Assembly (NCBI GenBank): GCA_963771355.1
Contig: CAVYTA010000006.1
Coordinates: 1,184,001 to 1,248,000, forward strand
DNA from: an uncultured Candidatus Rokubacteria bacterium
GTDB lineage: Bacteria > Methylomirabilota > Methylomirabilia > Rokubacteriales > CSP1-6
Direction: 5' to 3'
Length of the DNA stretch: 64,000 nt
In this document: positions 26,687 to 44,924 of the stretch, one piece after another
Layout of the letters: each line of letters opens with the position of its first letter
How positions within the stretch are numbered: the first letter of the stretch is position 1
Made by a program: the position numbers and the translations under genes
Notes under the pieces: model-generated
What the model saw: only the letters and a program-made list of their open reading frames with translations
Told to the model about the DNA's origin: nothing
Databases searched by the model: none

Positions 26687-28147
26687 GTGGGGGCTCGCGA
26701 GCTCAATCGCCGTCTCACCTCCGTCGACGCCACCTTCCTCTACGCCGAGAAGCCGACCCAGCCCATGCACGTGGGCGGCTGCATGATCTACGAGGGGCGG
26801 CTGTCGCTGGAGGCGCTGACCGAGGTGCTGAACGCACGGCTGCACCTCCTCCCGCGCTATCGCCAGAAGGTGGTGTTCCCGCCCTTCGGGCTCGCGCATC
26901 CCACCTGGGAGGACGATCCCGACTTCGACATCCGCAATCACGCCGCCGAGATCACGTTGCCTTCGCCGGGCGACGACCGGATGCTCTCGGAGGCGGGCGG
27001 ACAGGCCTTCGCGGGGATGCTCGATCGGAACCATCCCCTCTGGAAGCTCATCGTGGTACACGGGCGCGCCGACGGGAATACCGCGGTGATCTGGAAGATC
27101 CACCACGCCATGATCGACGGGGTCTCCGGCGTGGACCTCACCATGGTGCTCCACGACCTCAAGCAGGACGCGGCGCCCCCGGAGCCGCCGGCCGCGCCCT
27201 GGCAGCCCCAGCCCGTCCCCGATCCCCTCACCCTGCTGCAGGACTCGGTACGCGACCGGCTCACCGAGGTCGCGCGGATCGCGACCGACGAGACCTTCCG
27301 GCTCCTCCGCCCCACCGAGCTCGAGGCGCGTGTCCGACAGCTCGCCAGCGCCGTCACGTCGACCGCCCCGAACGTGCTCCGCCCGGCGCCGCGGGTACCG
27401 TTCAACGGGACGATCGGGGCGGAGCGGCGTTTCGGCTGGGCGGAGTTCTCCTTCGGCGAGTTCCGGCACGTGAAGTCCGTCCTGGGCGGCACCGTCAACG
27501 ACGTGGTGCTGGCGGTGATCGCGGGGGGGCTGGGCCGCTACCTCCGCGCCCTGGGTCTCTCCACCGACGGTGTGGAGCTCCGCGCGATGTGCCCGGTGAG
27601 CATGCGCCGGCCCGATCAGCGCGGCGCCCTGGGCAATCTCGTGTCCATGATCTTCGCCCCGCTGCACGTGGGCATCCTGGACCCGGTGGCGCGGCTCACC
27701 GCCGAGCGCGAGGCAATGGAGCGGCTCAAGAACCAGGACCAGGCGGGCGGACTCTACGAGATGACGAATCTGCTGGAGCAGGTGCCGCCCGCGCTGGCCG
27801 CGGTGGCCGGGCAGCTCTCGATCCCGAACACGCTGCTCAACACCGTGTCCACGAACGTGCCCGGACCCCAGATCCCGCTCTTCCTCTCGGGCCGGCGGCT
27901 CATCGGCTGGTACCCGCTCCTGCCCCTCGCCGGCGAGGTCGGGCTTTGCAACGCGATCCTCACGTACGACCAGCGGCTCACCATCGGGGTGACCACCGAT
28001 CCGCGCCTCGTCCCCGACGTCTGGCTCTACGTCGAATGCCTGAAGGCGTCCTTCGCCGAGCTCCGCGACGCTGCCGGGCGGCGAGAAGAGTCCAGACGCG
28101 AAGCGGCGCCCGAGAGCCGCCCCCGAGACGTACCCCTGGTACGTTGA
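26687..28147 (+). CDS. Wax ester synthase / diacylglycerol acyltransferase (WS/DGAT)
   Basis: DATFLYAE..PMHVG, HHAMIDG catalytic motif, GTVNDV, GNLVS, TNVPGP. Confidence 0.95.
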   Translation: MGARELNRRLTSVDATFLYAEKPTQPMHVGGCMIYEGRLSLEALTEVLNARLHLLPRYRQKVVFPPFGLAHPTWEDDPDFDIRNHAAEITLPSPGDDRMLSEAGGQAFAGMLDRNHPLWKLIVVHGRADGNTAVIWKIHHAMIDGVSGVDLTMVLHDLKQDAAPPEPPAAPWQPQPVPDPLTLLQDSVRDRLTEVARIATDETFRLLRPTELEARVRQLASAVTSTAPNVLRPAPRVPFNGTIGAERRFGWAEFSFGEFRHVKSVLGGTVNDVVLAVIAGGLGRYLRALGLSTDGVELRAMCPVSMRRPDQRGALGNLVSMIFAPLHVGILDPVARLTAEREAMERLKNQDQAGGLYEMTNLLEQVPPALAAVAGQLSIPNTLLNTVSTNVPGPQIPLFLSGRRLIGWYPLLPLAGEVGLCNAILTYDQRLTIGVTTDPRLVPDVWLYVECLKASFAELRDAAGRREESRREAAPESRPRDVPLVR

Positions 28148-28199
28148 GGGAGTGGCCGAGGGCGCGAACGACGCAGCTGGGCCCTTCTCGGCGGCCGGC
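28073..28199. repeat. ~125 bp palindromic MITE/REP-like element, copy 1
   Basis: Imperfect terminal IRs CCGGGCGGCGAGAAGAGTCCAG / CTGGGCCCTTCTCGGCGGCCGG; core CGTACCCCTGGTACGTTGAG identical to the copy at 43535. Confidence 0.85.
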
Positions 28200-28790: not shown

Positions 28791-30060
28791 GTGAGCTCCC
28801 CCGCCCCACGCCAGCGTCGGATTGCTCTCATCGTCCTCCTGGCGGCGGTCTTCCTGGCCATCACGTCCTTCCCCTTCCGCGCCTCCTGGTGGGGTGGCTG
28901 GATCCTCGCGATCGCCGAGGCGGGCATCGTGGGCGGGCTCGCCGACTGGTTCGCCGTCACCGCGATCTTCCGCCGCCCGCTCGGACTCCCCATTCCCCAC
29001 ACCGCGCTGATCCCGGCCAACTGGGAGCTGATGGCGGAACGCGTCGGCACCATGGTCGGCGACCGCGTGCTCACCAAGGACTACGTCGCGCGCGAGGTGG
29101 CGCGCTTCGACATCGCCGATCTCCTCGCGCGTGCCGCCGACCGCGTGAAGCCCGAGGATCTCGAGGCCGTGCTGCGCGCGGCCGCGCGCTGGGCGGCGGA
29201 TCAGCTCACGCCCGAAGCCACCGCGGACATCGTGGCCTGGCTGCGCGGACTCCTCCTCGGCCGTCCCCTGGCTCCCCTCCTGGCGCGGGCCATCGAGATC
29301 GCGCAGCGCCAGGGCTGGGACCAGCGCGCGATCGAGGCGCTCGCCGGCGCCCTCGGCGACGCGCTGGATCGCCCCGACTTCCGCGCTGCGGTGGGCGAGT
29401 TGGTGGACGAAGTGCTCGCCGGCTATCGCGAGAAGATGGGCACCTACCCGCGGCTCCTGATCGGGCTGGCCAACGTCTTCGGTCTGATCAACCGGGACCG
29501 GCTCGTCGGCGTCCTCCACGGCGCCATCCGGAAGGTGGCCGCCGACCCCGCCGACCCGATGCGGCGGCGCCTCGTCGAGGTGATCGGTGCCCTCCCAGAG
29601 CGCCTGCGCCGCGATGCCGACCTGGCCGCGCGCGTGGAGACCGCGAAGACGGAGCTGCTCGCGAGCGCGGAGGTGACCCGGCTCATCGAGGACGCGACCG
29701 AGGGCCTCCGGCGCGCGCTCGTCTCGGACCTCGCGAGCGAGCGGTCCGAGACGGTGGCCTGGATCACCGCCCGTCTCGACGGGCTCCGCCGGCAGCTGTC
29801 CACGGACCCGGCCCTCCGCGCAGGCTCTCGACCGGTGGATCAAGACGCGCATCATCGGCCTGATCGAGCGCTACCACGACCGCATCGCGCGCTTCATCGA
29901 GCGGGGCGTCCACGCGCTGGGGCCCGAGGGCGCGGTGCGCCTCATCGAGGAGCACGCGGGGGACGATCTCCAGTACATCCGCGTCAACGGCACCGTGGTC
30001 GGCGGGCTCGCCGGCGGCGCCCTCTACGCGATCCACCTGCTGCTGCGCCTGCTGCTGTAA
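28791..30060 (+). CDS. DUF445 family membrane protein, +1 frameshift near 29820
   Basis: EAGIVGGLADWFAVTAIFRRPLGLPIPHTA at the N-terminus. The C-terminal DLQYIRVNGTVVGG is in another frame, restored by removing one G at ~29820. Confidence 0.88.
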
Positions 30061-30063
30061 GGG

Positions 30064-30121
30064 GGCTGCCACACCTTTCGCCACTCCTTCGGCCACCCAC
30101 CCGCTCGAGGACGGCGCCGAG
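30064..30121 (+). pseudogene. intI: Integron-integrase (tyrosine recombinase) remnant
   Basis: Translates GCHTFRHSF[+1]ATHPLEDGAE, versus IntI box II CHTFRHSFATHLLEDG. Confidence 0.7.
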
Positions 30122-30296
30122 ACTCCTGTGACCCGCCATGCCGACCCCGCCCCCGCAGTCTCCGCCGCGCTACACAGGTCTGCGTATCCCCTCCCGCGCC
30201 CACCCCACCCCATGGCGAACTATGCGCCACCTAGGCTATTCTTGCGACGCAAGGAGGCCACCGGCCATGCTACGCAGCCTTCCCGCGCTACCACCT

Positions 30297-30331
30297 CCGC
30301 GCTACACAGAACTAGATAATTCTAGTTATGC
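30297..30331 (+). other. attI-like recombination site
   Basis: AACTAG-ATAATT-CTAGTT palindrome ending in core GTTATGC (30325-30331), the exact complement of the first attC R'' (GCATAAC). Confidence 0.7.
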
Positions 30332-30365
30332 GGACAGAGGAGGGCGCGAGCCCGAGAGGAGCCAT

Positions 30366-30743
30366 ATGCCTGACGCGCGTAAGCCGGGCGACGTTCATCC
30401 GTTGTTCGTGGCTGCCTTCAACGCAGGCGATCTCGACGCTCTCATGCAGTGCTTTGAGCCTGAGGCCTGCTTCGTATCCAAGTCGGGCCGTATCGCGGCC
30501 GGAGCCGACGCAGTCCGTGAGGCATATCGGCGAACACTCGCGAACAAGCCTCACATGGAGTTGGAGGTACGAAAGGTCTTGCCCGCGGGCCCCGGTCTGG
30601 CGTTGGTCATCGTCCCGTTCACGCAGAAGGCCGTCACGGGGGACGGACCGACGGAATGGCGCAGTGTAGCGACCGACATCGTTCGGCAGCAGCCCGATGG
30701 CAGTTGGCGGCTGGTTTTGGACAATCCGTTCGGTATCGAATGA
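30366..30743 (+). CDS. SnoaL/DUF4440 NTF2-like protein (cassette 1)
   Basis: FVAAFNAGDLDAL...ATDIVRQQPDGSWRLVLDNP; GAGGAG RBS. Confidence 0.88.
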   Translation: MPDARKPGDVHPLFVAAFNAGDLDALMQCFEPEACFVSKSGRIAAGADAVREAYRRTLANKPHMELEVRKVLPAGPGLALVIVPFTQKAVTGDGPTEWRSVATDIVRQQPDGSWRLVLDNPFGIE

Positions 30744-30749
30744 ACGACC

Positions 30750-30837
30750 GCATAACACACGGCTGGAACGGACCGCCGTCAAGCGCCGTTTTGACCTCCG
30801 AGCGTGGTGCCGGCGGCCGCTCAGGCGAGCGTTCGGC
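30750..30837 (+). other. attC site 1
   Basis: GCATAAC-5-GCTGGAAC...GCTCAGG...GTTCGGC with internal palindrome. Confidence 0.85.
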
Positions 30838-30906
30838 GTTTGACAGGTAGCGCTTGCGAGTCGACAGAGCCGTGAGACCCGACTGGCCGCTTCAACGGAG
30901 AACTGC

Positions 30907-31899
30907 ATGCTGAAGACACGTCTCACGGACCTGCTGGGCCTTCGCTATCCTGTCATTTCGGCACCGATGGCGCGCATGAGCGGCGGCCGTCTGGCGGCGG
31001 CGGTCTCCGCGGCCGGCGGCCTCGGGACCTTCGGCGGCGTGGCTCTCGCAACCCCCACCGGACCGGAATACGTCCGTGAGCAGATCGCCACGATTCGGGC
31101 CCAGACGGATCGTCCGTTCGGCGTCGGTTTCATCACGCATTGGTTGTCGCGCGCACCCGAGAATTTCGAGGTCGTCCTGGAGGAGCGAGTACCGGTCGTA
31201 CTCTTCTCTTTCGCCGATCCCCGGCCGTGGATCGGTCGCGCGAGGGATGCGGGGGCCATTACCATCTGTCAGGTTCAGACGATCGACGGCGCCCGAACCG
31301 CCGTCTCGGCAGGCGCTCACGTCCTCGTCGCGCAGGGCAACGAATCCGGCGGCCACACTGGCGCCCTGCACCTGTTGCCGTTCCTCGTCCGCGTCATCGA
31401 GATGTTTCCCGAGTTACCGGTGGTCGCCGCCGGCGGGATCGCAAACGGCCGCTCGCTGGCCGCGGTCCTCGCCGCCGGCGCCGAAGGTGCCTGGGTTGGA
31501 ACGGCTTTCGTAGCAACGCCGGAGAACGAACTCCCCGAGGCCTACAAGGCACGCGTCGTCCAGCATCGGGGAGATGAGTCCGTCTACACCGAAGTGATGG
31601 ATATCGTCCTCACACGGATGCGCGGGTCGCCGGCCTGGCCGACTGGCATCGCCGCGCGCGTCCACAATAACGCTTTCATTCGCACATGGCACGGCCGCGA
31701 AGACGAGTTACGTGCCCAGCTCGACGAGGTCATCCCGATGTACGCCGAGGCCGCGAAGCGCGGAGACCAGGATGTCGTCCCCGTGTTGTTCGGGCGATCC
31801 GCCGATTTCGTCCACGCCGTGCGGCCTGCGGCCGACGTCCTCACCGAGATGTGCGCCGCCGCCGAGCGCCACCTACGCGGGCGCTGGAACGCCGATTGA
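30907..31899 (+). CDS. Nitronate monooxygenase / FabK-like flavoprotein (cassette 2)
   Basis: PVISAPM, QGNESGGH, AAGGIANG, VGTAF. Confidence 0.9.
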   Translation: MLKTRLTDLLGLRYPVISAPMARMSGGRLAAAVSAAGGLGTFGGVALATPTGPEYVREQIATIRAQTDRPFGVGFITHWLSRAPENFEVVLEERVPVVLFSFADPRPWIGRARDAGAITICQVQTIDGARTAVSAGAHVLVAQGNESGGHTGALHLLPFLVRVIEMFPELPVVAAGGIANGRSLAAVLAAGAEGAWVGTAFVATPENELPEAYKARVVQHRGDESVYTEVMDIVLTRMRGSPAWPTGIAARVHNNAFIRTWHGREDELRAQLDEVIPMYAEAAKRGDQDVVPVLFGRSADFVHAVRPAADVLTEMCAAAERHLRGRWNAD

Positions 31900-31914
31900 A
31901 GGTGGCCGAGTATC

Positions 31915-31984
31915 GCCGAACAACGCGCAGCACCCGACCGGGGCTCGCGTTGCTCGCTCCGGCGGGTGAGCGCCGGCGTTACAG
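31915..31984 (+). other. attC site 2
   Basis: GCCGAAC-5-GCAGCACC...GGTGAGC-6-GTTACAG. Confidence 0.82.
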
Positions 31985-32026
31985 ACCGGTGATGGGGGCT
32001 TCGATGATGACGCGTGAGGAACAGCT

Positions 32027-32464
32027 ATGAGACGGCTGCTCAGAGCGATCACGGTCGTCACGGCCATCTTCCTTCTCGTCGTGCCGGCCGCCACTCACGC
32101 GCAGCAACCAGCAATGCCGGTGATCGGTTTCCTCGGCACCTCGACGGCCGCGGCTTGGGCAGGTTACGTGGCCGGGTTCCGTCAGGGGCTCAGCGAGGCT
32201 GGCTATGTCGACGGCCGCAACGTCACGATCGAATTCCGCTGGGCGGAGGACCGATCCGATCGATTGTCGCCGCTCGCGGCTGATTTGGTCGGCCGTCAGG
32301 TGACCGTGATCGTCACAAGCGCTGGAACGGCTCTGGCACTCGCGGCGAAGGCCGCGACTCCGACTATCCCCGTCGTTTTCGTGATGGGGGCCGACCCCGT
32401 CAAGTTCGGTCTCGTCGCCAGTCTCGGTCGTCCGGGAGGGAACCTCACGGGGGTGTCAAGCTGA
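32027..32464 (+). pseudogene. Truncated ABC substrate-binding protein (ABC_sub_bind family)
   Basis: [12 protein letters not shown]...[16 protein letters not shown]...[21 protein letters not shown] then stops; only the N-terminal half is present. Confidence 0.8.
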
Positions 32465-32519
32465 GGCGGAGGCGGAGGGCATCGTTGCTCGTCTACCCCA
32501 TCGGCGGCACTCTTACGTA

Positions 32520-33068
<549 letters not shown>

Positions 33069-33100
33069 CTATCGGGCCTCAGACGGCTCCGAGCGCCGCC

Positions 33101-33135
33101 GCCTAACCCGCCGCTGAACCGCAGTATCGTTAGCC
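33101..33135 (+). other. attC site 3, internally deleted (35 bp)
   Basis: GCCTAAC-CCGCCGCTGAACCGCAGTATC-GTTAGCC; both R boxes retained, central stem missing. Confidence 0.7.
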
Positions 33136-33623
33136 GCTATGATGTGTGACCGATCGGTGCGAGCATGCGCGGGCGCGCCCTGGAAGGCGCGCATGTGTCA
33201 GAACGAGGGAGGTTCCAGGGCTGGCGATGACGGTTAAGACACTGCGCCCCCAATCGCGAGTGGCGCGATCACGGACAGTGAGCGTGAAGTTCGGTCGGCG
33301 CCACGAGGCCGGACGCGCGCTTCGTCATACTGTCGACTCACGCTGCGCGGAGCTAATCGTGCAGGGTGTGCCACGATCGGACACGGCGAGTGCTAAGTGA
33401 CAACGCATCACGCTGGGGCCCGGTAGCGGCCATCGCCGCGATCAGCATGAACAGCAATTGAAGGAGCTCGCGACCCTCGGCATCAAGCGGGTCGGGCTCA
33501 TGATCTGCGAGACGCTTTTGCTTGGCACTGCTGGTCCTCGCGCTCCTGCGCTGGGGCGGCTGAAGGCGCAAGGCACCGCCCCAGATCGCTGCCTGTGAGT
33601 GCGCTCTCTTCAAAGGATAAGGC

Positions 33624-35324
33624 ATGAACGGCTGGAAGCGTTGGCTGCCCGGGCTGCAGATGGCCAGCCGGTACGAGGCCGCCTGGCTGCCGCACGATCT
33701 TATGGCCGGCCTGGTACTGACCACGATGCTGGTGCCGGTTGGAATTGCCTACGCAGTGGCCTCGGGCGTCCCGGGGATCTACGGCCTGTACGCCACCATC
33801 GTCCCGCTGCTCGCCTACGCCCTGTTCGGCCCGAGCCGGATCCTGGTGCTGGGGCCGGATTCCGCGCTCGCCGCGGTGATTCTCGCGGTCGTGCTGCCTC
33901 TCTCTGCCGGCGACCCGATGCGCGCCGTGGCCCTGGCGAGCATGATGGCGGTGGTGTCGGGACTGGTGTGCATTCTGATCGGCGTAATGCGCCTGGGATT
34001 CGTCACCGAGCTGCTGTCCAAACCGATCCGCTACGGCTACATGAACGGCATCGCGCTCGCCGTGCTGATCAGCCAGCTGCCGAAGCTGTTCGGCTTTTCG
34101 ATCGACAGCGTCGGGCCGCTGCGCGACCTCCTGCGGATCGCGCGGTCGATCCTGGGCGGCCAGGCCAACTGGACGGCGTTCGCGGTCGGCGCCGGCACGC
34201 TGGTGGCGATCCTGCTGCTCAAGCCCTGGAAGCGAATCCCCGGCCTACTGATCGCGGTCGTGGGCGCCACGGTCGCGGTAGGCGCGCTCGGCCTGGACGA
34301 GAGCGCCGGGGTGAAGGTGCTCGGTCCGCTGCCGCAAGGCCTGCCGTCGTTCGCGCTGCCGTGGATAGATCTCGCCGACCTCGTCCAGGTGGTGATCGGC
34401 GGCTGCGCCGTCGCCCTGGTGGCGTTTGCCGACACGAGCGTCCTGTCGCGCACGTATGCGGCCAAGACCCGCTCCCAGGTCGATCCGAACCAGGAGATGA
34501 TCGGCCTGGGCGCCGCGAACCTGGCGGCCGGGCTGTTCCAGGGCTTCCCGATCAGCAGCAGCTCCTCGCGCACGCCGGTCGCCGAAGCCGCGGGCGCGAA
34601 GACCCAGCTCACCGGCGTGGTCGGCGCCGCGGCCGTTGCCCTGCTGCTGTTAGTCGCACCCAATCTGCTGGAAGACCTGCCCAGCAGCGCGCTGGCAGCC
34701 GTCGTGATTGCGGCGGCCATCGGCCTGTTCGAATTCGACGACCTGCGCCGCATTTTCCGCATCCAGCGCTGGGAGTTCTGGCTGTCCGTCGTTTGCTTCG
34801 TTGGCGTCGCAGCATTCGGAGCGATTCCCGGCATCTGCTTGGCGATCGTCATCGCCGTCATGGAGTTTCTCTGGGACGGCTGGCGGCCACATTACGCCGT
34901 GCTGGGCCGAGTCGACGGCATCCGGGGCTTCCACGACATCAAGCGCTATCCCGAGGCGCGGCTCGTTCCGGGCCTGGTCCTGTTCCGCTGGGATGCGCCG
35001 CTCTTCTTCGCCAATGCCGAGCTGTTTCACCAGCGCGTGCTCGAGGCCGTGGCGCAATCGCCGACGCCGATGCGCCGGATCATCGTGACCGCCGAGCCGG
35101 TCACCAGCATCGACGTGACCTCGGCGGACATGCTCGCCGAGCTGGAGCATGCCCTGCGCGAATCGGGCATCGAGATGCGCTTCGCGGAAATGAAGGACCC
35201 GGTCAAGGACAAGCTGAAGCGCTTCGAACTGTTCGAGCGCTTCGGTACCGCGAGCTTTCATCCTACCGTGGGCGCCGCCGTCGACGCCTACCTAGAAGAG
35301 CACTCGGTGGATTGGAAACCCTGA
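33624..35324 (+). CDS. SulP/SLC26 anion transporter with STAS domain
   Basis: DLMAGL, GLYA, FGPSR, NQEMIGLG, SSSRT, PLFFANA. Confidence 0.95.
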   Translation: MNGWKRWLPGLQMASRYEAAWLPHDLMAGLVLTTMLVPVGIAYAVASGVPGIYGLYATIVPLLAYALFGPSRILVLGPDSALAAVILAVVLPLSAGDPMRAVALASMMAVVSGLVCILIGVMRLGFVTELLSKPIRYGYMNGIALAVLISQLPKLFGFSIDSVGPLRDLLRIARSILGGQANWTAFAVGAGTLVAILLLKPWKRIPGLLIAVVGATVAVGALGLDESAGVKVLGPLPQGLPSFALPWIDLADLVQVVIGGCAVALVAFADTSVLSRTYAAKTRSQVDPNQEMIGLGAANLAAGLFQGFPISSSSSRTPVAEAAGAKTQLTGVVGAAAVALLLLVAPNLLEDLPSSALAAVVIAAAIGLFEFDDLRRIFRIQRWEFWLSVVCFVGVAAFGAIPGICLAIVIAVMEFLWDGWRPHYAVLGRVDGIRGFHDIKRYPEARLVPGLVLFRWDAPLFFANAELFHQRVLEAVAQSPTPMRRIIVTAEPVTSIDVTSADMLAELEHALRESGIEMRFAEMKDPVKDKLKRFELFERFGTASFHPTVGAAVDAYLEEHSVDWKP

Positions 35325-35329
35325 AAAGC

Positions 35330-35364
35330 AAAAAAGACCGGACCTCTTGCGAGACCGGGTTCTT
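35330..35364 (-). terminator. Degenerate intrinsic terminator (possibly bidirectional)
   Basis: Minus strand ACCCGGTCTC-GCAA-GAGGTCCGGT followed by a T-tract. Confidence 0.6.
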
Positions 35365-35380
35365 CGTCTCGAGTATAGGG

Positions 35381-35433
35381 TGGCGAAAACCTACTTTTGC
35401 AACGAAGGCACACTTTCATCGTCGCAACTCCGT
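35381..35433 (-). pseudogene. rrf: Degenerate 3' half of a 5S rRNA gene
   Basis: Minus strand ACGGAGTTGCGACGATGAAAGTGTG...GCAAAAGTAGGTTTTCGCCA, versus 5S 3' consensus GCGCCGATGATAGTG...GCGAAAGTAGGTCATCGCCA. Confidence 0.7.
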
Positions 35434-35549
35434 CTGCCCCGGATCGGGCGTGCTGGTACGACGGGCCGTCAAGGCGGGTGCTCGAGCCACCGGAAGCGAC
35501 GGAGCCCGTAATCGCGACGGTCGATCATGCTGATATCCGTGGGAGCGTC

Positions 35550-35638
35550 GTCTAACAACCGATTGGTGCGGCCGGCGTCCAGGTTACGGTGACAACCTCT
35601 AGACGTGGTAGCGCCGCCGCTCAACCGGAGCGTTCGGC
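35550..35638 (+). other. attC site 4
   Basis: GTCTAAC-5-ATTGGTGC...GCTCAAC-6-GTTCGGC. Confidence 0.83.
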
Positions 35639-35672
35639 GACTTCGCGAAACTCAACGGTCGGAGGACAGCCT

Positions 35673-36698
35673 ATGCTTGGTCGCACCCCTCATCCTTGTG
35701 CCTGGCTCCTCGCCTCGCGATGCGCGCTTGTCCTTTCCGTGATTCTGGGCATGCTCGCTGCGTCCCTCCCGGCGGCGGCGCAGGCGCCCCAGAAGGTCTA
35801 TCGCGTCGGTCACCTTGCGGCACCGGGTCGAACACCCGACGGTGCCCCGCCGCGCGTACTCCGTGAAGCGTTGCGAGAGCTCGGCTACGTCGAGGGCCAG
35901 AACATCGCATACGAGGCCCGTTTTGCTGAGGGCAAGCTGGAGCGGCTGCCAGATTTGGCGGCCGAGCTCGTCCGGCTCAAGGTCGACGTCATCGTGGCGC
36001 AAGGGGGGGCGTCGACGGAGGCGGCAAGGCGAGCGACATCGACGATTCCGATCATCATGGCGCCGGCCTCGGGGGATGCCGTGGCGGTCGGATGGATCGC
36101 AACCCTTGCGCGCCCAGGCGCGAACGTCACCGGATTGAGCGATGAGTCCATCCAACTGAGTGCCAAGCGGATGGAGCTTCTCAAGGAGGCGCTGCCGAAA
36201 GCAGCCCTGATCGCGATCATCTGGAACGCCAACGATCGTGGTATGACGCTGCGCTACCGCGAGATCGAGAAAGCGGCGCTCACCCTCCGTGTGGAGGTGC
36301 AAGGGCTGGGCGTGCGCGATCCCGAGGACTTCGCGGCGGCATTCGCCACGATGACACAGCGCAGGCCAGACGCGATGTTCCTGGTTGCGGACGCTCTCAC
36401 GAACATCAATCGTAAACGGTTTGTCGAGTTCGCGGCGACCCACCGCATTCCGGCAATGTATGAGTCCAGCGTCATCGTCCGCGAGGGGGGGCTGATGTCG
36501 TACGGGTCCAGCTTCGAGGACGAGTTCCGTGAGGCCGCCCGGTACATCGATCGCATTCTCAAGGGCGCGAAGCCGGCGAATCTGCCCGCCGTGCAGCCAA
36601 CGAAGTACTACTTCGTGGTCAATCTCAAGACGGCGACCACTTTGGGGCTGACGTTTCCCCAGTCCCTGCGCCTCCGGATCGACGAACTGGTCGAGTAG
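35673..36698 (+). CDS. Orphan ABC substrate-binding protein (ABC_sub_bind family, cassette 5)
   Basis: GGAGG RBS; LGYVEGQNI, LARPGANVTG, GGLMSYG, ILKGAKPANLP, NLKTA. Confidence 0.92.
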   Translation: MLGRTPHPCAWLLASRCALVLSVILGMLAASLPAAAQAPQKVYRVGHLAAPGRTPDGAPPRVLREALRELGYVEGQNIAYEARFAEGKLERLPDLAAELVRLKVDVIVAQGGASTEAARRATSTIPIIMAPASGDAVAVGWIATLARPGANVTGLSDESIQLSAKRMELLKEALPKAALIAIIWNANDRGMTLRYREIEKAALTLRVEVQGLGVRDPEDFAAAFATMTQRRPDAMFLVADALTNINRKRFVEFAATHRIPAMYESSVIVREGGLMSYGSSFEDEFREAARYIDRILKGAKPANLPAVQPTKYYFVVNLKTATTLGLTFPQSLRLRIDELVE

Positions 36699-36705
36699 AT
36701 GGATC

Positions 36706-36762
36706 GCCGAACAAGCCGCTGCAGCGGACCGGCTGCGCCAGCCCTGAGCGCCGACGTTAGCC
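36706..36762 (+). other. attC site 5
   Basis: GCCGAAC-5-GCTGCAGC...CCTGAGC-6-GTTAGCC. Confidence 0.85.
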
Positions 36763-36819
36763 GTCGTGCGGCCGGGCGCGGCCGGCGGATAGGCTACAAT
36801 CGGCTCTAAAGGAGGGCCG

Positions 36820-37347
36820 ATGCGGCTCCTAGCCCTTACCCTGCTCCTGCTCTTCGCGTCCCCGGGCTCCGCGCAGATGTCGCCATTCGAATTCAATGGT
36901 GTCGCGCTGGGAACCGATCTCGCGTCGATCGAGCGCACGTCCCGCTTCTCGTGCACGGAGTCGCGGAGCCCGGTCGCGGACCAGCTCTGCCGCCTCAAGT
37001 CGGGTGAGCGCGAGACCATCGGCGACGCCCCGGTGAAGGGGCTCTTCCTCTACTTCTATTCGGGCAAGCTCGAGATGATCTCCCTCACCCTCGAGCCAAA
37101 GCACTTCCCCGACGTCGTGGGCGCCCTGACGAAACGGTATGGCACGGGAAGCATAGAAACCGAGACCGTGCAGAATCTCACCGGCGGAACGTTCGAGAAC
37201 AAGATCTATTCCTGGCGCCGAAACAAGGCAACGCTCGAAGCGCAGACCTACGGCAGGAACCTCGAAACGTCGTCCCTGATCTATCGCACCGACTTTTCCC
37301 TGGAGGAGTATACGCGGCGGAGCAGCGCGAATCCGGCGGGCCGCTAG
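36820..37347 (+). CDS. Secreted hypothetical protein
   Basis: AAGGAGG RBS, signal peptide, two Cys; no recognised domain. Confidence 0.75.
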   Translation: MRLLALTLLLLFASPGSAQMSPFEFNGVALGTDLASIERTSRFSCTESRSPVADQLCRLKSGERETIGDAPVKGLFLYFYSGKLEMISLTLEPKHFPDVVGALTKRYGTGSIETETVQNLTGGTFENKIYSWRRNKATLEAQTYGRNLETSSLIYRTDFSLEEYTRRSSANPAGR

Positions 37348-40300
37348 CCCGAGGCCCACACGTCCACGAGATACCGGTTCCGCGCGACGAGATCGTCGAG
37401 CCATGCCTCCGCCTGCGCCGCCGTCCCGCCGGTCTTCGCGCGGTGGATGGCGGCGAAGGCGCGCCGCACGTCGGGAGCCATGCGGGTGGCGTCCCCGCAG
37501 ACGTAGACGATCGCGCCCGCCTCCAGGAGGGTCCAGACGTCGTCCTTCCGCTCGACAACCTCGTCCTGCACATAGACGCGCGCCCGGTCGGCCACCCGCG
37601 AGAAGCAGGGATAGAGCGACGCCACCCCTCCCTCGGCGAAGGCGCGCAGCTCCCCTGCGTAGATGAAGTCCTGCTCGGGATGTCGGCAGCCGAAGAAGAG
37701 GAGGGCGGGGCCGATGGGCCGGCTCTGCGCACGCAGAGCGGCGCGCTCCTGGAGGAAGCCGCGGAACGGGGCCAGGCCGGTGCCGGGGCCGATCATGATG
37801 AGGGGCGTCGTCGGATCGTCGGGGAGGCGGAACGCCGACCGGGTGTCCTTCACGAACGCCTGGACGAGGCTTCCCTCCCCCTGGCGGAGGAGGTGATTCG
37901 AGCACACGCCCTCGAAGACCCCGCGGCCGGACCGCGCCTCGCCCGCCACTACCGCCACCGTGATGCTGCAGCGCCGCGCGTCGTGGAGCGGCGACGACGA
38001 GATCGAGTAGTAGCGCGGGCGGAGCGGCGGGAGCATCTCGAGATACACGTTGAACGGGAGCTGGCAGGCCGGGTACTCCTCGAGGAGGTCGAGCACCGAC
38101 TTGCGGCGCGCCATCACCTCGTCCTTGTAGCGTGCCTCGTCAGCCGCCAGCGCGGCCAGCCGCGGCCGCGTCCACGGGCATTCCGTGTGCTCGACCATGG
38201 TCTGGAGGTGGCGGCGCGAAGCGACCTCCTGGAGCTCCAGGTAGTCGCCGAGGAGGCGCGCGAGCGCGATCGGCGCGTCCACGGGGAGGAAGCCCGGGCG
38301 CCCGCCCTCGCGGTGGAGCCGCACGTGACTGGCCGGATCCAGGCCGAAGCGCGCGGTCACCCGGGCGACAAGCGCGTGGGGATTCCGCGGCGCCACGCCC
38401 AGATGGTCGCCTGCGCGATACGCCACCCCCGCAGGAAGCTCGAGCTCGAGGTGGCGGGTCGAGCGCTCCGACGGGAAGGGGCCGCGCCTTGGTGTGGAGC
38501 TCACGGTTAACGGCCACGCGCATGGGGCGGGCGCCATGGCCGTCCTCGCGAGTGCCCGCATCCGGCCCCGCCACGATCTCGACGGTGAGGTGCGCCGGCT
38601 CGGCGGCTTCGGCGGGGGTCAGCTCGACCCCCAGCGTGGTGGCGACGGCGCCCCAGAGCGGCTCCTGCCAGGCTTCGAACTGAGCGTCGAAGTCGTCCCG
38701 CGCGTCGCCTTCACCACGTGGGTGTAAACGCTGGGCGCCCAGCGCCTCGAGCCGAGCATCGATCAGGCGCGGGATGGCCTGGAACGTCGCCGCCCAGTCG
38801 CGGTTGCCGCAGCCGAACACCGCATAGCGGACGCCGGCGAGGGCGCCGGGGGCGAGCCCGCCGTCGCGCAGCCAGTCGCAGAAGCGCCCGGCATTGTCGG
38901 GGGGCGTGCCGTTGTAGGACGCGGTGGTGATGAGGACGGCACCCTCGCGGGGCAGCCGGCCGGCGTACTCGTCGAGGGACGCGACGGTCACTGCGAAGCC
39001 TTGCCCCTCGCCTGCCTCGGCGATGCGCCGCGCGACCTCCTCGGCGGTGCCGAGGTTCGACCCGTACAGCACGATGGAGCGGGGTCTGGTGGCCTGGGCG
39101 AGAGGCGCGCGCGGCCGGCGCGACGCGGGCGGCCACCGCCGCGCCCGTGCTCGTGGTGGCGACCGCACGTCCCGTCGCCGCGCGATCGCGGTCGGTGCGG
39201 CGCCGGACCTTGATGCGGAACTGGTCCGGCTTCACCGTGAGGGTTTCCTTGAGGGTAAGCCGGTAGCGCGTGTGATCGATGAGCTTGAAGCGCTGGAGGA
39301 TCATCCCGAGGACGAGCGCCGCCTCCTGCAGGGCGAACTGCCGGCCGATGCAGGCCCGCTGGCCATTGCCGAAGGGCTTGTACGCGTTGGCGGGACGCTG
39401 TCGCTCCGCCTCACGGCTGAAGTTGTCGGGGTTGAAGACGTCGGCCTGCTCGCCCCACACCTTCCGGTCGCGGTGGAGCATGGGACTCAGCACCACGATC
39501 TGGTAGTTCTTCCGCATCCGGTACAATCCGCCAATCATCTCGTCCTTGTACGGCGACAGCGCGAACACCGGCGCGGTGGGCCAGAGCCGGAGCGATTCCT
39601 TCAGGATCTGCTCGAGGTAGGCGAGCTGATTCACCTGGGCGTAGGTGGGTAACACCCCCGGATCCGGCCCGAGCACGCGATCCACCTCGGCGGAGGCGCG
39701 GGCGAGCACGTCGGGATTGTTGAGGAGATAGTAGACGGCGAAGGAGAGGAGCCCGCTCGTGGTCTCGTGGCCGGCGATGAGGAAGGTGATGACCTGGTAG
39801 CGGATATTGAGGTCGTCGAGCCGTTCGCCCGTCTTCCGGTCGACGCCGGAGAGCATGTGGCTGAGGAGATCGGGCTTGTCGGCGAGGTCGTCGCCGCTCT
39901 CCCGCCGCTCCCGCACGATCCGGTCCACCATCTCGTTCATGTAGCGGATGTCGGCGCGGAGCTTCCGCTCCCGGTCCTTCTTCACGATGCTCTCGAGCGG
40001 GAGACCCCGGGTCTCCATCGACGTGCCCAGCGCGCCGATCATGGCGCCCACGAAGGGGTGCGGCGACTCCCGGTAGAACGAGTTGAAGCGGTAGCCGAAG
40101 CCGCAGAGGCCGATGGTGTCGAGCGTCAGCGACGTCATGTCATGGGTGACGTCGATCTCGTCGTCGGCGTTGAGGCGGTCCCACTTGAGCACGAGCTGCT
40201 CGGCGATGTCGAGCATCATGGGGTGATAGCCCTGCATCGCGCGCTGGCCGAAGCTCGGCAGGAGGATGTTGTGCGCTCGGGACCAGTTGGGCTCCTGGGT

Positions 40301-40585
40301 GTAGGCGGTGAAGAGCCCGTCGCCCGCGAAGTCGCGCAGCCGGCGGAGAGCTCCGCGCACGCTCTTGTCGAAGCGCGACTCGTCACAGAGCTCGTCCACG
40401 AGGTCGAATCCCGAGACGATCACCACCGGCTTGCCGAGCATGTCGAGCCAGTAGATCGGACCGTACTCTTGGGCCAGCTTCATCATGTCCTGCACGGGCG
40501 AGATGGTGGTGAGCGAGAGGAGATTGCCCAGGACGAAGGTCCGCGGCGGATGGGGGATCGGGGTGAGGGCATTCTTCTTCGCCAT
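37344..40585 (-). CDS. Bifunctional cytochrome P450/NADPH-P450 reductase (CYP102, BM3-like), two apparent +1 frameshifts
   Basis: AGHETTSG and FGNGQRACIG (heme); YGSNLGT and ASYNG (FMN); RYYSISS and GPGTGLAPFRG (FAD/NADPH). Split over three frames at ~39076 and ~38486. Confidence 0.9.
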
Positions 40586-40648
40586 CTCGCTCACCCGCCC
40601 CGCGGGCCGGTGCTGCCACGGACCTGCCTCAGCGCCATCGCGCCGGAC

Positions 40649-43534: not shown

Positions 43535-44924
43535 CCGGGCGTCGAGAAGGGTCCAGATGCGAGGCGGCGCCCGAGATCCGCCTGCGAGGCGTACCCCTGG
43601 TACGTTGAGCAGTGGGCTTGCCCCGCTTTCGTGGACACCCCCCGCACAAACGTGCGATAGGAGTGGTCCATGAGCGAGCGACGGAAGCGGCGGACGTTTA
43701 GCGAGGCCTTCAAGGCGGAAGCAGTGCGGCTCGTGCGGGATGAGGGCAAGACCGTGGCCGCGGCGGCGCGGGCGCTCGATCTCGCGCGAGTCGGCGTTGC
43801 GGCTCTGGGTCCGCGATGCCGAGCGCGAGGCGCGGCACACCGGGGCGCTGAGTAACGGCGGAGCGCAAAGAGCTGGAGCAGTTGCGGCGAGAGAACCGCA
43901 CGCTCCGGATGGAGCGCGACATCCTGAAAAAAAGCGACGGCCTTCTTCGCCAAGGACCACGCGTGAGGTTCGCGTTCATCCAGGCGGAGAAGGCCACCTT
44001 CCCGGTCACGGTACTCTGCCGGGTGCTGGGGGTCTCCCGTGCGGGCTTCTACGCCGCTCAGAGCCGCCCGGTGCCGCCGCGGGTCACGGCGGATGCCCGG
44101 CTGGCGGTGCAGATCGCCGCGATCCACCGGGCGAGCCGACGGTGCTACGGCAGCCCGCGCGTGCACGCCGAGCTGCGGGCCCGCGGGCAGGGCACCAGTC
44201 GCAAGCGGGTGGCGCGGCTCATGCGGCGCGCCGGGTTGGCGGCCCGCCGCCGCCGGGCCTTCCGGGTCACCACCCAGTCGCGGCATACCCACCCGGTGGC
44301 CCCGAACCGGCTGGCCCGGCAGTTCACGGCCCCAGTCCCGGATCGCGTCTGGGTGACCGACATCACGTACCTGGCGACGGTCGAGGGCTGGCTGTACCTG
44401 GCGGTGGTGCTGGATCTGTTTTCCCGCCGGGTCGTCGGTTGGGCCGCGAGCGACCGCCTCGGCGAAGGCGTCGCGCTCGAGGCGCTTGGGAATGGGGCTG
44501 GCCCGGCGCCGGCCGCGGCCCGGGCTGCTGCATCACTCGGATCGGGGCTCGCAGTATGCCAGTGCGGAGTATCGCGCGGTCCTGGCCGGGCACGGGATGG
44601 ACACCGCAGCATGAGCGCGGGTGCGGCCAGCTGCTGGGACAACGCCGTGGCCGAGAGCTTCTTCGCCGACGCTCAAGGTCGAGCTCGACCACGACGGCGC
44701 CTGGCGGACGCGGGCGGAGGCGCACCGCGCGGTGTTTGACTACATCGAACTCTTCTACAACAGCGCACGCGGCGGCACTCGACGCCTCGGCTATCTCAGC
44801 CCGCGTGGCCGTTCGAACGGCAGTGGCAGCACACCGCGTAGTGAACCTGTCCACGGAATCGGGGCAAGTCCAGCAGGCGGACGAGTGGCGCCAACGAAGC
44901 AGATGGGCCCTTATCGGCGCCCGG
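43535..44924. repeat. MITE/REP-like element copy 2, split by IS3 (43535-43612 plus 44877-44924)
   Basis: Flanks join into a homologue of 28073-28199; IRs CCGGGCGTCGAGAAGGGTCCA / TGGGCCCTTATCGGCGCCCGG. Confidence 0.85.
43613..44872 (+). mobile_element. IS3-family insertion sequence (1260 bp), transposase broken by multiple indels
   Basis: TG...CA ends; IRs TGGGCTTGCCCCGCTTTCGTGGACA / TGTCCACGGAATCGGGGCAAGTCCA; GCAG target duplication; orfA HTH; A7G slippery site 43927-43934; WVTDITY, LDLFSR, CWDNAVAESFF. Confidence 0.95.

Follow-up and report, generated by a model that had tools for sequence, protein, structure and literature searches.

Evidence in a Rokubacteria genome for the head of a co-oriented integron with little of its integrase gene left, and for the probable use of this head as a cassette docking site served in trans

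Genes and features at the DUF445 locus

The window, that is, the whole stretch of 64,000 nucleotides that was analysed, lies in a genome (G000) that is 99.8% complete. Within it, an array of same-strand attC hairpins with R/L boxes and extrahelical bases (five attC, one of them eroded) follows a host gene of the DUF445 family, whose stop codon is the TAA at 30058-30060. The covariance model used for attC was built from 21 sites including 4 from the window, so the model matches of these four are by construction; independently of the model, the cassette ends are exactly complementary in three of five cases. The features are as follows.

28791..30060, + strand, DUF445 host gene (Pfam PF04286), left border of the insertion, homologues in six congeners
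30064..30121, + strand, intI remnant of 58 bp, box-II region with the H-x-x-R-H motif, IntI residues about 272-289
30122..30131, + strand, join of a second deletion, with last codon and TGA (30129-30131, likely the intI stop), placed by alignment with the 3' end of the G002 intI and with allele L335
30169..30188, no strand assigned, distal dyad: half-site GCTACACAG (30169-30177), 2-nt spacer, inverted half-site CTGCGTATC (30180-30188)
30237..30269, + strand, candidate cassette promoter and leader ORF: -10 TATTCT (30237-30242), Shine-Dalgarno (30251-30257), ATG (30267)
30269..30277, + strand, half-site GCTACGCAG at -56, the position -55/-56 being occupied 16 times among 47 leaders
30283..30291, + strand, third copy of CCGCGCTAC, identity 0.51 against a background of 0.54
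30301..30309, + strand, half-site GCTACACAG at -24, conserved within the genus
30313..30331, + strand, attI simple site: L box 30313-30319, 5-nt spacer, R box GTTATGC 30325-30331
30366..30743, + strand, cassette 1 gene, SnoaL-like/DUF4440
30750..30837, + strand, attC1 (88 bp), covariance model
30907..31899, + strand, cassette 2 gene, nitronate monooxygenase family
31915..31984, + strand, attC2, covariance model
32027..33068, + strand, truncated ABC substrate-binding gene (32027-32464) continuing into a RibD-C cassette gene (32520-33068)
33101..33139, + strand, internally deleted attC (39 bp), read from the sequence, no covariance-model match
33624..35324, + strand, SulP-STAS gene
35550..35638, + strand, attC4, covariance model
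35676..36698, + strand, last cassette gene, ABC substrate-binding (PF04392), start approximate
36706..36762, + strand, attC5 and array end, covariance model

In four of the six congeners with DUF445, this gene directly abuts the homologue of 36820 (the empty site), and ~30061-36790 is therefore a lineage-specific insertion of 6.7 kb between DUF445 and the next host gene, with host sequence starting again at about 36790. In the other two of the six, DUF445 is flanked differently, without a visible leader. A different insertion, with a methyltransferase-like gene, follows DUF445 in the congener G006 (L149), and the DUF445 site may therefore be an insertion hotspot.

The junction between DUF445 and the remnant is bridged by public contigs out of five studies. 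A base at 29820 within DUF445 is absent from contigs of three of four runs, and the frameshift near this position is an assembly error. The P450-reductase region of the window (37344-40594) is likewise split into frames. There is also a broken IS3-type element (HTH_21 and rve) at 43600-44870, within a repeat whose other copy lies at 28074-28199.

The window array is now decaying in G000, as seen in the truncated cassette, the 39-bp attC and attC1, most of which (30763-30843) is skipped by contigs of two runs from two studies; the skip could reflect a fixed-cassette allele or, alternatively, an artefact of assembly at the hairpin. The RibD-C cassette gene is common to arrays of G010 (91%) and G002 (87%), and the stretch 33297-33412 upstream of the SulP-STAS gene is also found in the metagenome allele L335. 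Members of PF04392 recur as cassette cargo (window 32027-32464 and 35676-36698, the C4 and C6 arrays of G000, L330 and L019); about 7 of the 49 matches to this family in G000 are in or at the edge of arrays, which make up <1% of the genome, and the expansion of the family may be partly cassette-borne.

Identity of the integrase remnant

The original prediction read the 58 bp after the DUF445 stop, on the strand of the cassettes, as a piece of an integrase, and this reading was confirmed in the sequence: GCHTFRHSF and ATHPLEDGAE are encoded on the + strand, separated by a single extra base at 30091. The extra base is covered, with no base left out, in contigs of seven of eight runs, although one of the runs behind the support for the junction and for 30091 is possibly the source of the assembly. 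Unlike the DUF445 frameshift, it was ruled out as an assembly error by the public-run contigs. In the orthologous allele L335 the remnant is in frame.

Comparison of the gap DNA with 159 family genomes gave matches in 68. The 28 loci listed (29 were examined beyond the window's own) comprise 25 IntI, two weaker Xer-like genes and one without a reading; the integron-specific insertion is visible in the printed frame of nearly all of the 25, and most of them have an attI-like GTT site 150-280 bp downstream. At the DNA level the remnant is most similar (87-91% over about 55 nt) to full IntI genes with the specific insertion, followed by attI and co-oriented cassettes, and not to Xer or phage integrases devoid of a linked attC array. 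The nearest intact homologues also have this insertion and score 448-463 bits with TIGR02249 against a cut-off of 265. As the insertion region lies outside the 58-bp remnant, the assignment is made on DNA identity and on the attached leader.

An origin of the 58 bp from XerC/XerD, a phage integrase or another non-IntI recombinase, lying near the array by chance, could be argued from the motif H-x-x-R-H-S-F-A, which is common to tyrosine recombinases, and from the top match to the remnant within G000 itself, which is an Xer-like gene (86% over 42 nt). However, in the 159 family genomes the best matches fall to IntI that have the specific insertion, and the top identity of the remnant is 92% among 39 IntI box-II segments and 83% among 20 from Xer and other proteins. 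The states C-H-T-F and L-E-D are moreover of IntI type, with the C present in 20/39 IntI and 2/20 others and the D in 33/39 IntI, and the 200 nt behind the remnant align with the leader 3' of the intI of G002, a member of the same genus. The chance origin was thus counted as refuted and is considered extremely improbable; judged by these comparisons, the 58 bp are assigned to an integron integrase and not to Xer. The intI of G002 carries three frameshifts and is followed by a leader 69% identical to that of the window; two frameshifts also occur in nearby host genes of G002, so that error and pseudogene are indistinguishable for this intI. Intact IntI of 326-327 aa, 86-93% identical to the G002 tail, are present in public data.

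A second, internal deletion of ~110 bp (about 37 codons) separates the remnant from the last codon and stop in the alignment with L335, and the TGA at 30129-30131 is likely to be the stop of the same intI. A join at a CGCCGA microhomology was considered and dropped, as in the L335 alignment the join comes further on, immediately ahead of the last codon. A near-complete deletion of the integrase presupposes that a full intI was once present at this locus, but an intact intI was found there in none of six congeners and, within the flanks available, in none of 20 metagenome matches to the DUF445 end, and the 3' fragment may therefore have arrived already cut.

Orientation of integrase and array

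The proposal that this was an inverted-type integron is borne out by its relatives. Among the family intI matches, of which 40 of 110 were examined, downstream attC were found in 32 loci, all co-oriented with the integrase and none opposite, and one locus also has upstream attC; the count excludes four rows from the window and nine weaker matches that repeat the same palindromes on the opposite strand. The stretch is almost certainly the head of a co-oriented integron whose integrase has been nearly erased. Outside the family, attC matches were found in 34 of 80 IntI loci of other lineages, 26 of them co-oriented and eight canonical. In a quick tree, whose long outgroup branches make the root unreliable, the canonical integrases group together (support 96) and the co-oriented ones are unresolved, in line with the paraphyly reported in PMC4889954. 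In two loci (L013:1858-1928 and L197), a truncated intI is preceded by an attC on the same strand. The possibility that intI itself travels as a cassette was rejected as a general explanation, upstream attC being limited to 1/40 loci and L013.

The attI site and its leader

The crossover of attI falls after 30325, and the R box GTTATGC is the exact reverse complement (7/7) of the first attC R'' GCATAAC. The same geometry is found in 20 validated relatives, and the R box equals the reverse complement of the first R'' in all four G000 arrays and in both alleles of the locus (L335, L330). In 21 of 32 relatives the first R'' is exactly complemented 116-254 bp after intI. A search for the attI pattern in viral contigs found none.

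In the window, the leader ORF crosses attI and is fused in frame with the cassette 1 gene. A -10-like TAT(T/C)CT, a Shine-Dalgarno sequence and an ATG are present in six of seven genus leaders examined (Shine-Dalgarno and ATG at about -74/-58), with the Shine-Dalgarno weak in two of these six; in the wider family a Shine-Dalgarno with a start was seen in just 4/47 leaders. The leader shows no match to a sigma-70 consensus, and the RNA runs searched contained at most 0.24 of the sequence words. By its sequence, this stretch is a candidate promoter and start for cassette 1, and the overlap of its ATG with the half-site at -56 may explain the conservation of the ATG.

Repeats and half-sites in the leader

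The direct repeats named in the original prediction are where it had placed them, with CCGCGCTACACAG at 30165 and 30297 and CCGCGCTAC additionally at 30283. Among 2000 dinucleotide-shuffled versions of the gap, 7 contained an exact repeat of 13 bp, as did 45 of 2000 268-mers drawn at random from the contig; such a repeat is above chance and modest on its own, and it is conservation that gives real support. For this, 47 leaders out of 59 non-redundant loci were aligned, among which kin leaders are not independent in the half-site counts. A 9-bp half-site, G-N-T-A-N3-W-G, occurs 53 times in these leaders against 8.0 +/- 2.7 in 60 shuffles and three in cassette controls, and is present in 38/47 leaders; its inverted form occurs 28 times against 10.5 expected. 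The positions cluster at -24, -36, -47, -55/-56 and -68, in roughly helical steps from the L box. The enrichment of the -24 site and L box is partly circular, as both belong in part to the rule by which attI was located. The window's distal dyad lies at -156/-145 from the crossover, and distal dyads in the 47 leaders have a spacer of 10 in 15 cases and of 2 in six, against <=0.2 per spacer in shuffles. Within the genus, columns of the half-sites and L box match the window at 0.83 against 0.54 elsewhere. The copy at 30283 is not conserved and is probably a local duplication.

A similar arrangement is known from attI1 (PMC8946536, PMC8876359), where a simple site is likewise accompanied by upstream direct repeats (GTTACGCAG, compared with GCTACGCAG/GCTACACAG here) and where, in ORF-11 (PMC8876359), a Shine-Dalgarno sequence and ATG lie upstream of the crossover, which the candidate leader ORF of the window recalls. 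In attI1 of a class 1 plasmid (NC_006671), GTTACGCAG lies at -32 and GTTATGGAG at -51, and the half-site agrees with DR1 of attI1 at 7-8 of 9 bases and shares its G-N-T start with IntI boxes. The DR1/DR2 repeats are reported to favour attI1 x attC recombination (PMC8946536). The offsets differ, however, being -24/-56 (also -156) here, where an inverted pair near -150 is found in addition; the leader follows the stop codon of intI, and the Shine-Dalgarno and ATG are mostly confined to the genus.

The suggestion that the repeats are accessory integrase-binding sites is made likely for the 9-bp half-site motif, which is conserved at phased positions beside intact integrases, but not for the copy at 30283. 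We rather favour the view that the phased half-sites would serve as accessory IntI-binding sites. The same stretch could instead be read as an integron head whose repeats are operators of a host regulator, acting on a cassette promoter or on access of the integrase. The distal dyad, with its fixed spacer of 2 or 10 nt some 150 bp from the crossover, is operator-like, and the distal pair shares GTATC with the box found upstream of intI and competence genes (see below). Against this stand the roughly helical spacing from the L box, the G-N-T start and DR1 match just described, and the matrix built for that box, which at >=10 bits is found in two and three of 47 leaders on the two strands as against 36/50 intI promoters. 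The operator reading is regarded as unlikely. With about 47 aligned leaders, the geometry of accessory sites outside attI1 is now directly testable.

Other integron heads in the genome

No TIGR02249 match above the cut-off and no intact intI were found in G000, and with a close intact IntI as query only the C4 tail and other recombinases were recovered. The genome has four copies of the leader, each heading an array with attI, and 16 of its 17 attC matches (among 150 candidates scored) are inside these arrays, which on closer search hold 3-8 attC each. With two or more attC and no intact intI in the vicinity, the G000 arrays are CALIN. A solo attC lies at C5:1000227-1000280, with no leader match nearby.

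The C4 copy is syntenic with the G002 intI and has half a promoter box joined to the last intI codons, and it is a true deletion in place. The C6 orphan head has syntenic counterparts in G002 and G003; the sequence behind attI is different in each of the three genomes, and the counterparts in G002 and G003 are without an intI remnant. In the stretches examined, leader matches number four in G000, three in G002, two each in G003, G004 and G007, and one in G001; leader-like heads thus occur in six of eight genus genomes, as against intI in one.

Alleles of the locus and cassette loading after integrase loss

The 20 metagenome matches to the DUF445 end consist of two with the window junction and leader (L335, L330), one empty site (L338) and 17 with other neighbours. 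The leaders of L335 and L330 are 97% and 93% identical to that of the window. Behind the shared junction, the first cassette of L335 is an O-methyltransferase gene with an exact joint (GTTCGGC/GCCGAAC), and L335 rejoins the window array distally, after three attC (its distal array being known over 2.2 kb). In L330 the remnant is eroded to about 12 nt and the first cassette is an ABC-binding gene, again with an exact joint (GTTATCC/GGATAAC). The exact joints in three alleles suggest attI x attC recombination of the kind catalysed by IntI. Since the lesion is older than the three distinct exact joints, IntI would have acted in trans, unless different arrays each received a copy of the deletion allele. 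In public runs, loose ends behind attI also carry other first cassettes; these contigs could not be assigned to the locus and were excluded as evidence. To call the locus a relic understates the site: its first cassette was exchanged once the integrase had gone, and the attI was likely still being loaded by IntI made elsewhere.

On these data, the inverted-integron head with its intact attI and leader is probably a satellite docking site that would be served by IntI in trans. The 3' end of an integron of the genus (intI tail, stop, about 200-nt leader and attI) would have been copied and fixed behind DUF445. Because the co-oriented integrase gene points into attI, its loss would leave the leader and attI untouched, which offers a simple explanation for an orphan attI. 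IntI from another locus or from incoming DNA would bind the L/R boxes, with phased 9-bp half-sites helping as DR1/DR2 do in attI1, and cassettes would be inserted or excised at G|TT. The first cassette may be expressed by the leader promoter and its Shine-Dalgarno and ATG, or by read-through from DUF445, and in G000, where no intI is left, the array would now be decaying.

Several findings speak against this satellite reading: G000 itself is without a source of IntI and shows the signs of array decay, the sole intI found in the genus (G002) has three frameshifts, the offsets do not match those of attI1, and the leader is without a promoter consensus. The empty-site allele L338 is in addition the closest to the window in DUF445 (95.8%, as against 92.3% for L335 and 91.8% for L330), which suggests loss or horizontal replacement of the region and weakens a simple vertical reading.

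The same observations could be arranged differently, as a frozen relic: an intact integron at DUF445 diversified, after which one deletion allele (the DUF445 end, remnant and leader) swept through the strains by transformation, with no IntI acting in trans. Such a sweep would account for the closeness of L338 and for an identity between the window and L335 that is higher in the leader (97%) than in DUF445 (92%), and it would suit a genome with comEA-, comM- and radC-type genes and a decaying array. On the other hand, it requires an intact integron at a locus where 0/6 congeners and 0/20 metagenome matches have an intact intI; a second locus, without an intI remnant, repeats the pattern of an orphan head with different first cassettes; and leader-like heads are found in six of eight genus genomes with intI in only one. 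A sweep is considered quite unlikely, and service in trans remains the preferred reading.

Comparison with known integron systems

Inverted integrons and CALINs are already known. The arrangement seen here, with intI on the attC strand and attI at its 3' side, is that of the inverted integron-integrase group (Treponema denticola; PMC4889954, PMC3607928). It differs in occurring in Methylomirabilota/Rokubacteria, where it holds across the whole family sample, in the reduction of the gene to 58 bp and in the four heads per genome. The lineage is taken from the names carried by cluster members, which are Methylomirabilota for RecA and, for one IntI match, Rokuibacteriota. Of 279 CALIN, 15 are reported near intI pseudogenes (PMC4889954).

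An attC cluster without a functional nearby intI is also what has been described for CALIN and for Xanthomonas integrons with inactivated intI (bioRxiv 10.1101/2025.06.18.660453), which, as here, occur several per genome at loci conserved in the lineage and are stated to be mobilisable in trans. The action of IntI in trans on CALINs is likewise stated in PMC9668308. In contrast to the Xanthomonas case, attI and leader are conserved here, and alleles with a common lesion differ in the first cassette. Xanthomonas strains with a common intI lesion usually have identical arrays (bioRxiv 10.1101/2025.06.18.660453), which counts against the satellite reading.

The usual view of arrays without an integrase is that they are frozen or act as donors of cassettes. 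One dead junction with three exact first-cassette joints suggests that in nature an orphan attI can go on accepting cassettes, which would change the reading of many CALINs in soil genomes.

A box shared by integrase and competence-type promoters

The motif YGTATC is present upstream of intI in 38 of 50 family regions (shuffle mean 3.7), as against six on the reverse strand and 8/68 in other lineages, and the box YGTATC-N8-NAC sits just before the -35. When extended to abut TTGA, the box has eight strict matches in G000, with none in a 3-Mb Markov control, and ten loose ones where 3.7 are expected. Its targets in G000 are recA, radC, YifB/comM, comEA, a pilin-like gene, four Uma2 genes and a WD40 gene, and similar targets were found in four of five other genomes. 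Sites of the box in G000 include C7:366262, C6:675641, C6:2088361 and C6:2679136; others lie upstream of intI in L167-L206 and elsewhere. A matrix trained on 20 non-intI sites, with a threshold of >=10 bits, matched 36/50 intI promoters, compared with 10/50 on the reverse strand, 4/68 in other lineages and 10/400 controls. The genes comEA, comM and radC are typical of competence regulons. The box is a candidate mark of a competence or DNA-uptake regulon, a label taken from gene names; against it, many of the targets are Uma2 nucleases. A variant of the box is found at three genes in G000 (C7:774741-776171, C7:797268-798809 and C6:2357010), two of which appear by sequence to be IS91-type transposases.

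Like integrase promoters under LexA control (PMC3108266), those of the intact relatives carry a conserved palindrome-like box, which some recA promoters share. The box of the relatives, however, matches neither the LexA motifs tested nor the local lexA palindrome. Three known LexA motifs (in part from PMC8565304) gave 0/50 in intI upstream regions, as did the palindrome of the local lexA promoters with one mismatch allowed. The lexA promoters of five genomes (L234-L238) were read and carry CTCAAC-N4-GTTGAG or close variants; this palindrome is a candidate LexA box of the family, and a scan of G000 with one mismatch returned just two other sites. An SOS reading of the intI box was rejected, as only 4 of 32 recA upstream regions (all in this family) match the strict box and the lexA promoters carry another palindrome. 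A reading of YGTATC as the end of a mobile platform was also rejected, with one shared host locus in genus g34 and the motif preceding recA as well. Cambray et al. (PMC3108266) describe only E. coli-like LexA boxes at intI and leave the control of soil integrases open. Searches for literature on integrons in Rokubacteria/Methylomirabilota, on Rokubacteria and LexA, and on integrases within a competence regulon gave nothing on the integrons of this lineage in the openly accessible main texts.

The presence of the box in 36/50 intI promoters and at comEA, comM, radC and some recA provides a concrete candidate regulon, and ties in with the cassette shuffling driven by transformation that is reported in PMC12614218. 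It is possible, though doubtful, that Rokubacteria run a distributed integron, in which one integrase, switched together with competence genes and not by LexA, serves several satellite attI. If so, cassettes on soil DNA taken up by the cell would be captured at several expression sites, and strains without intI could be reloaded when an intact intI passes through.

Many recA genes of the family (L230, L231 and L263-L266) match their profile in two parts, with ORFs of about 490-840 aa, as an intein or a similar insertion would give.
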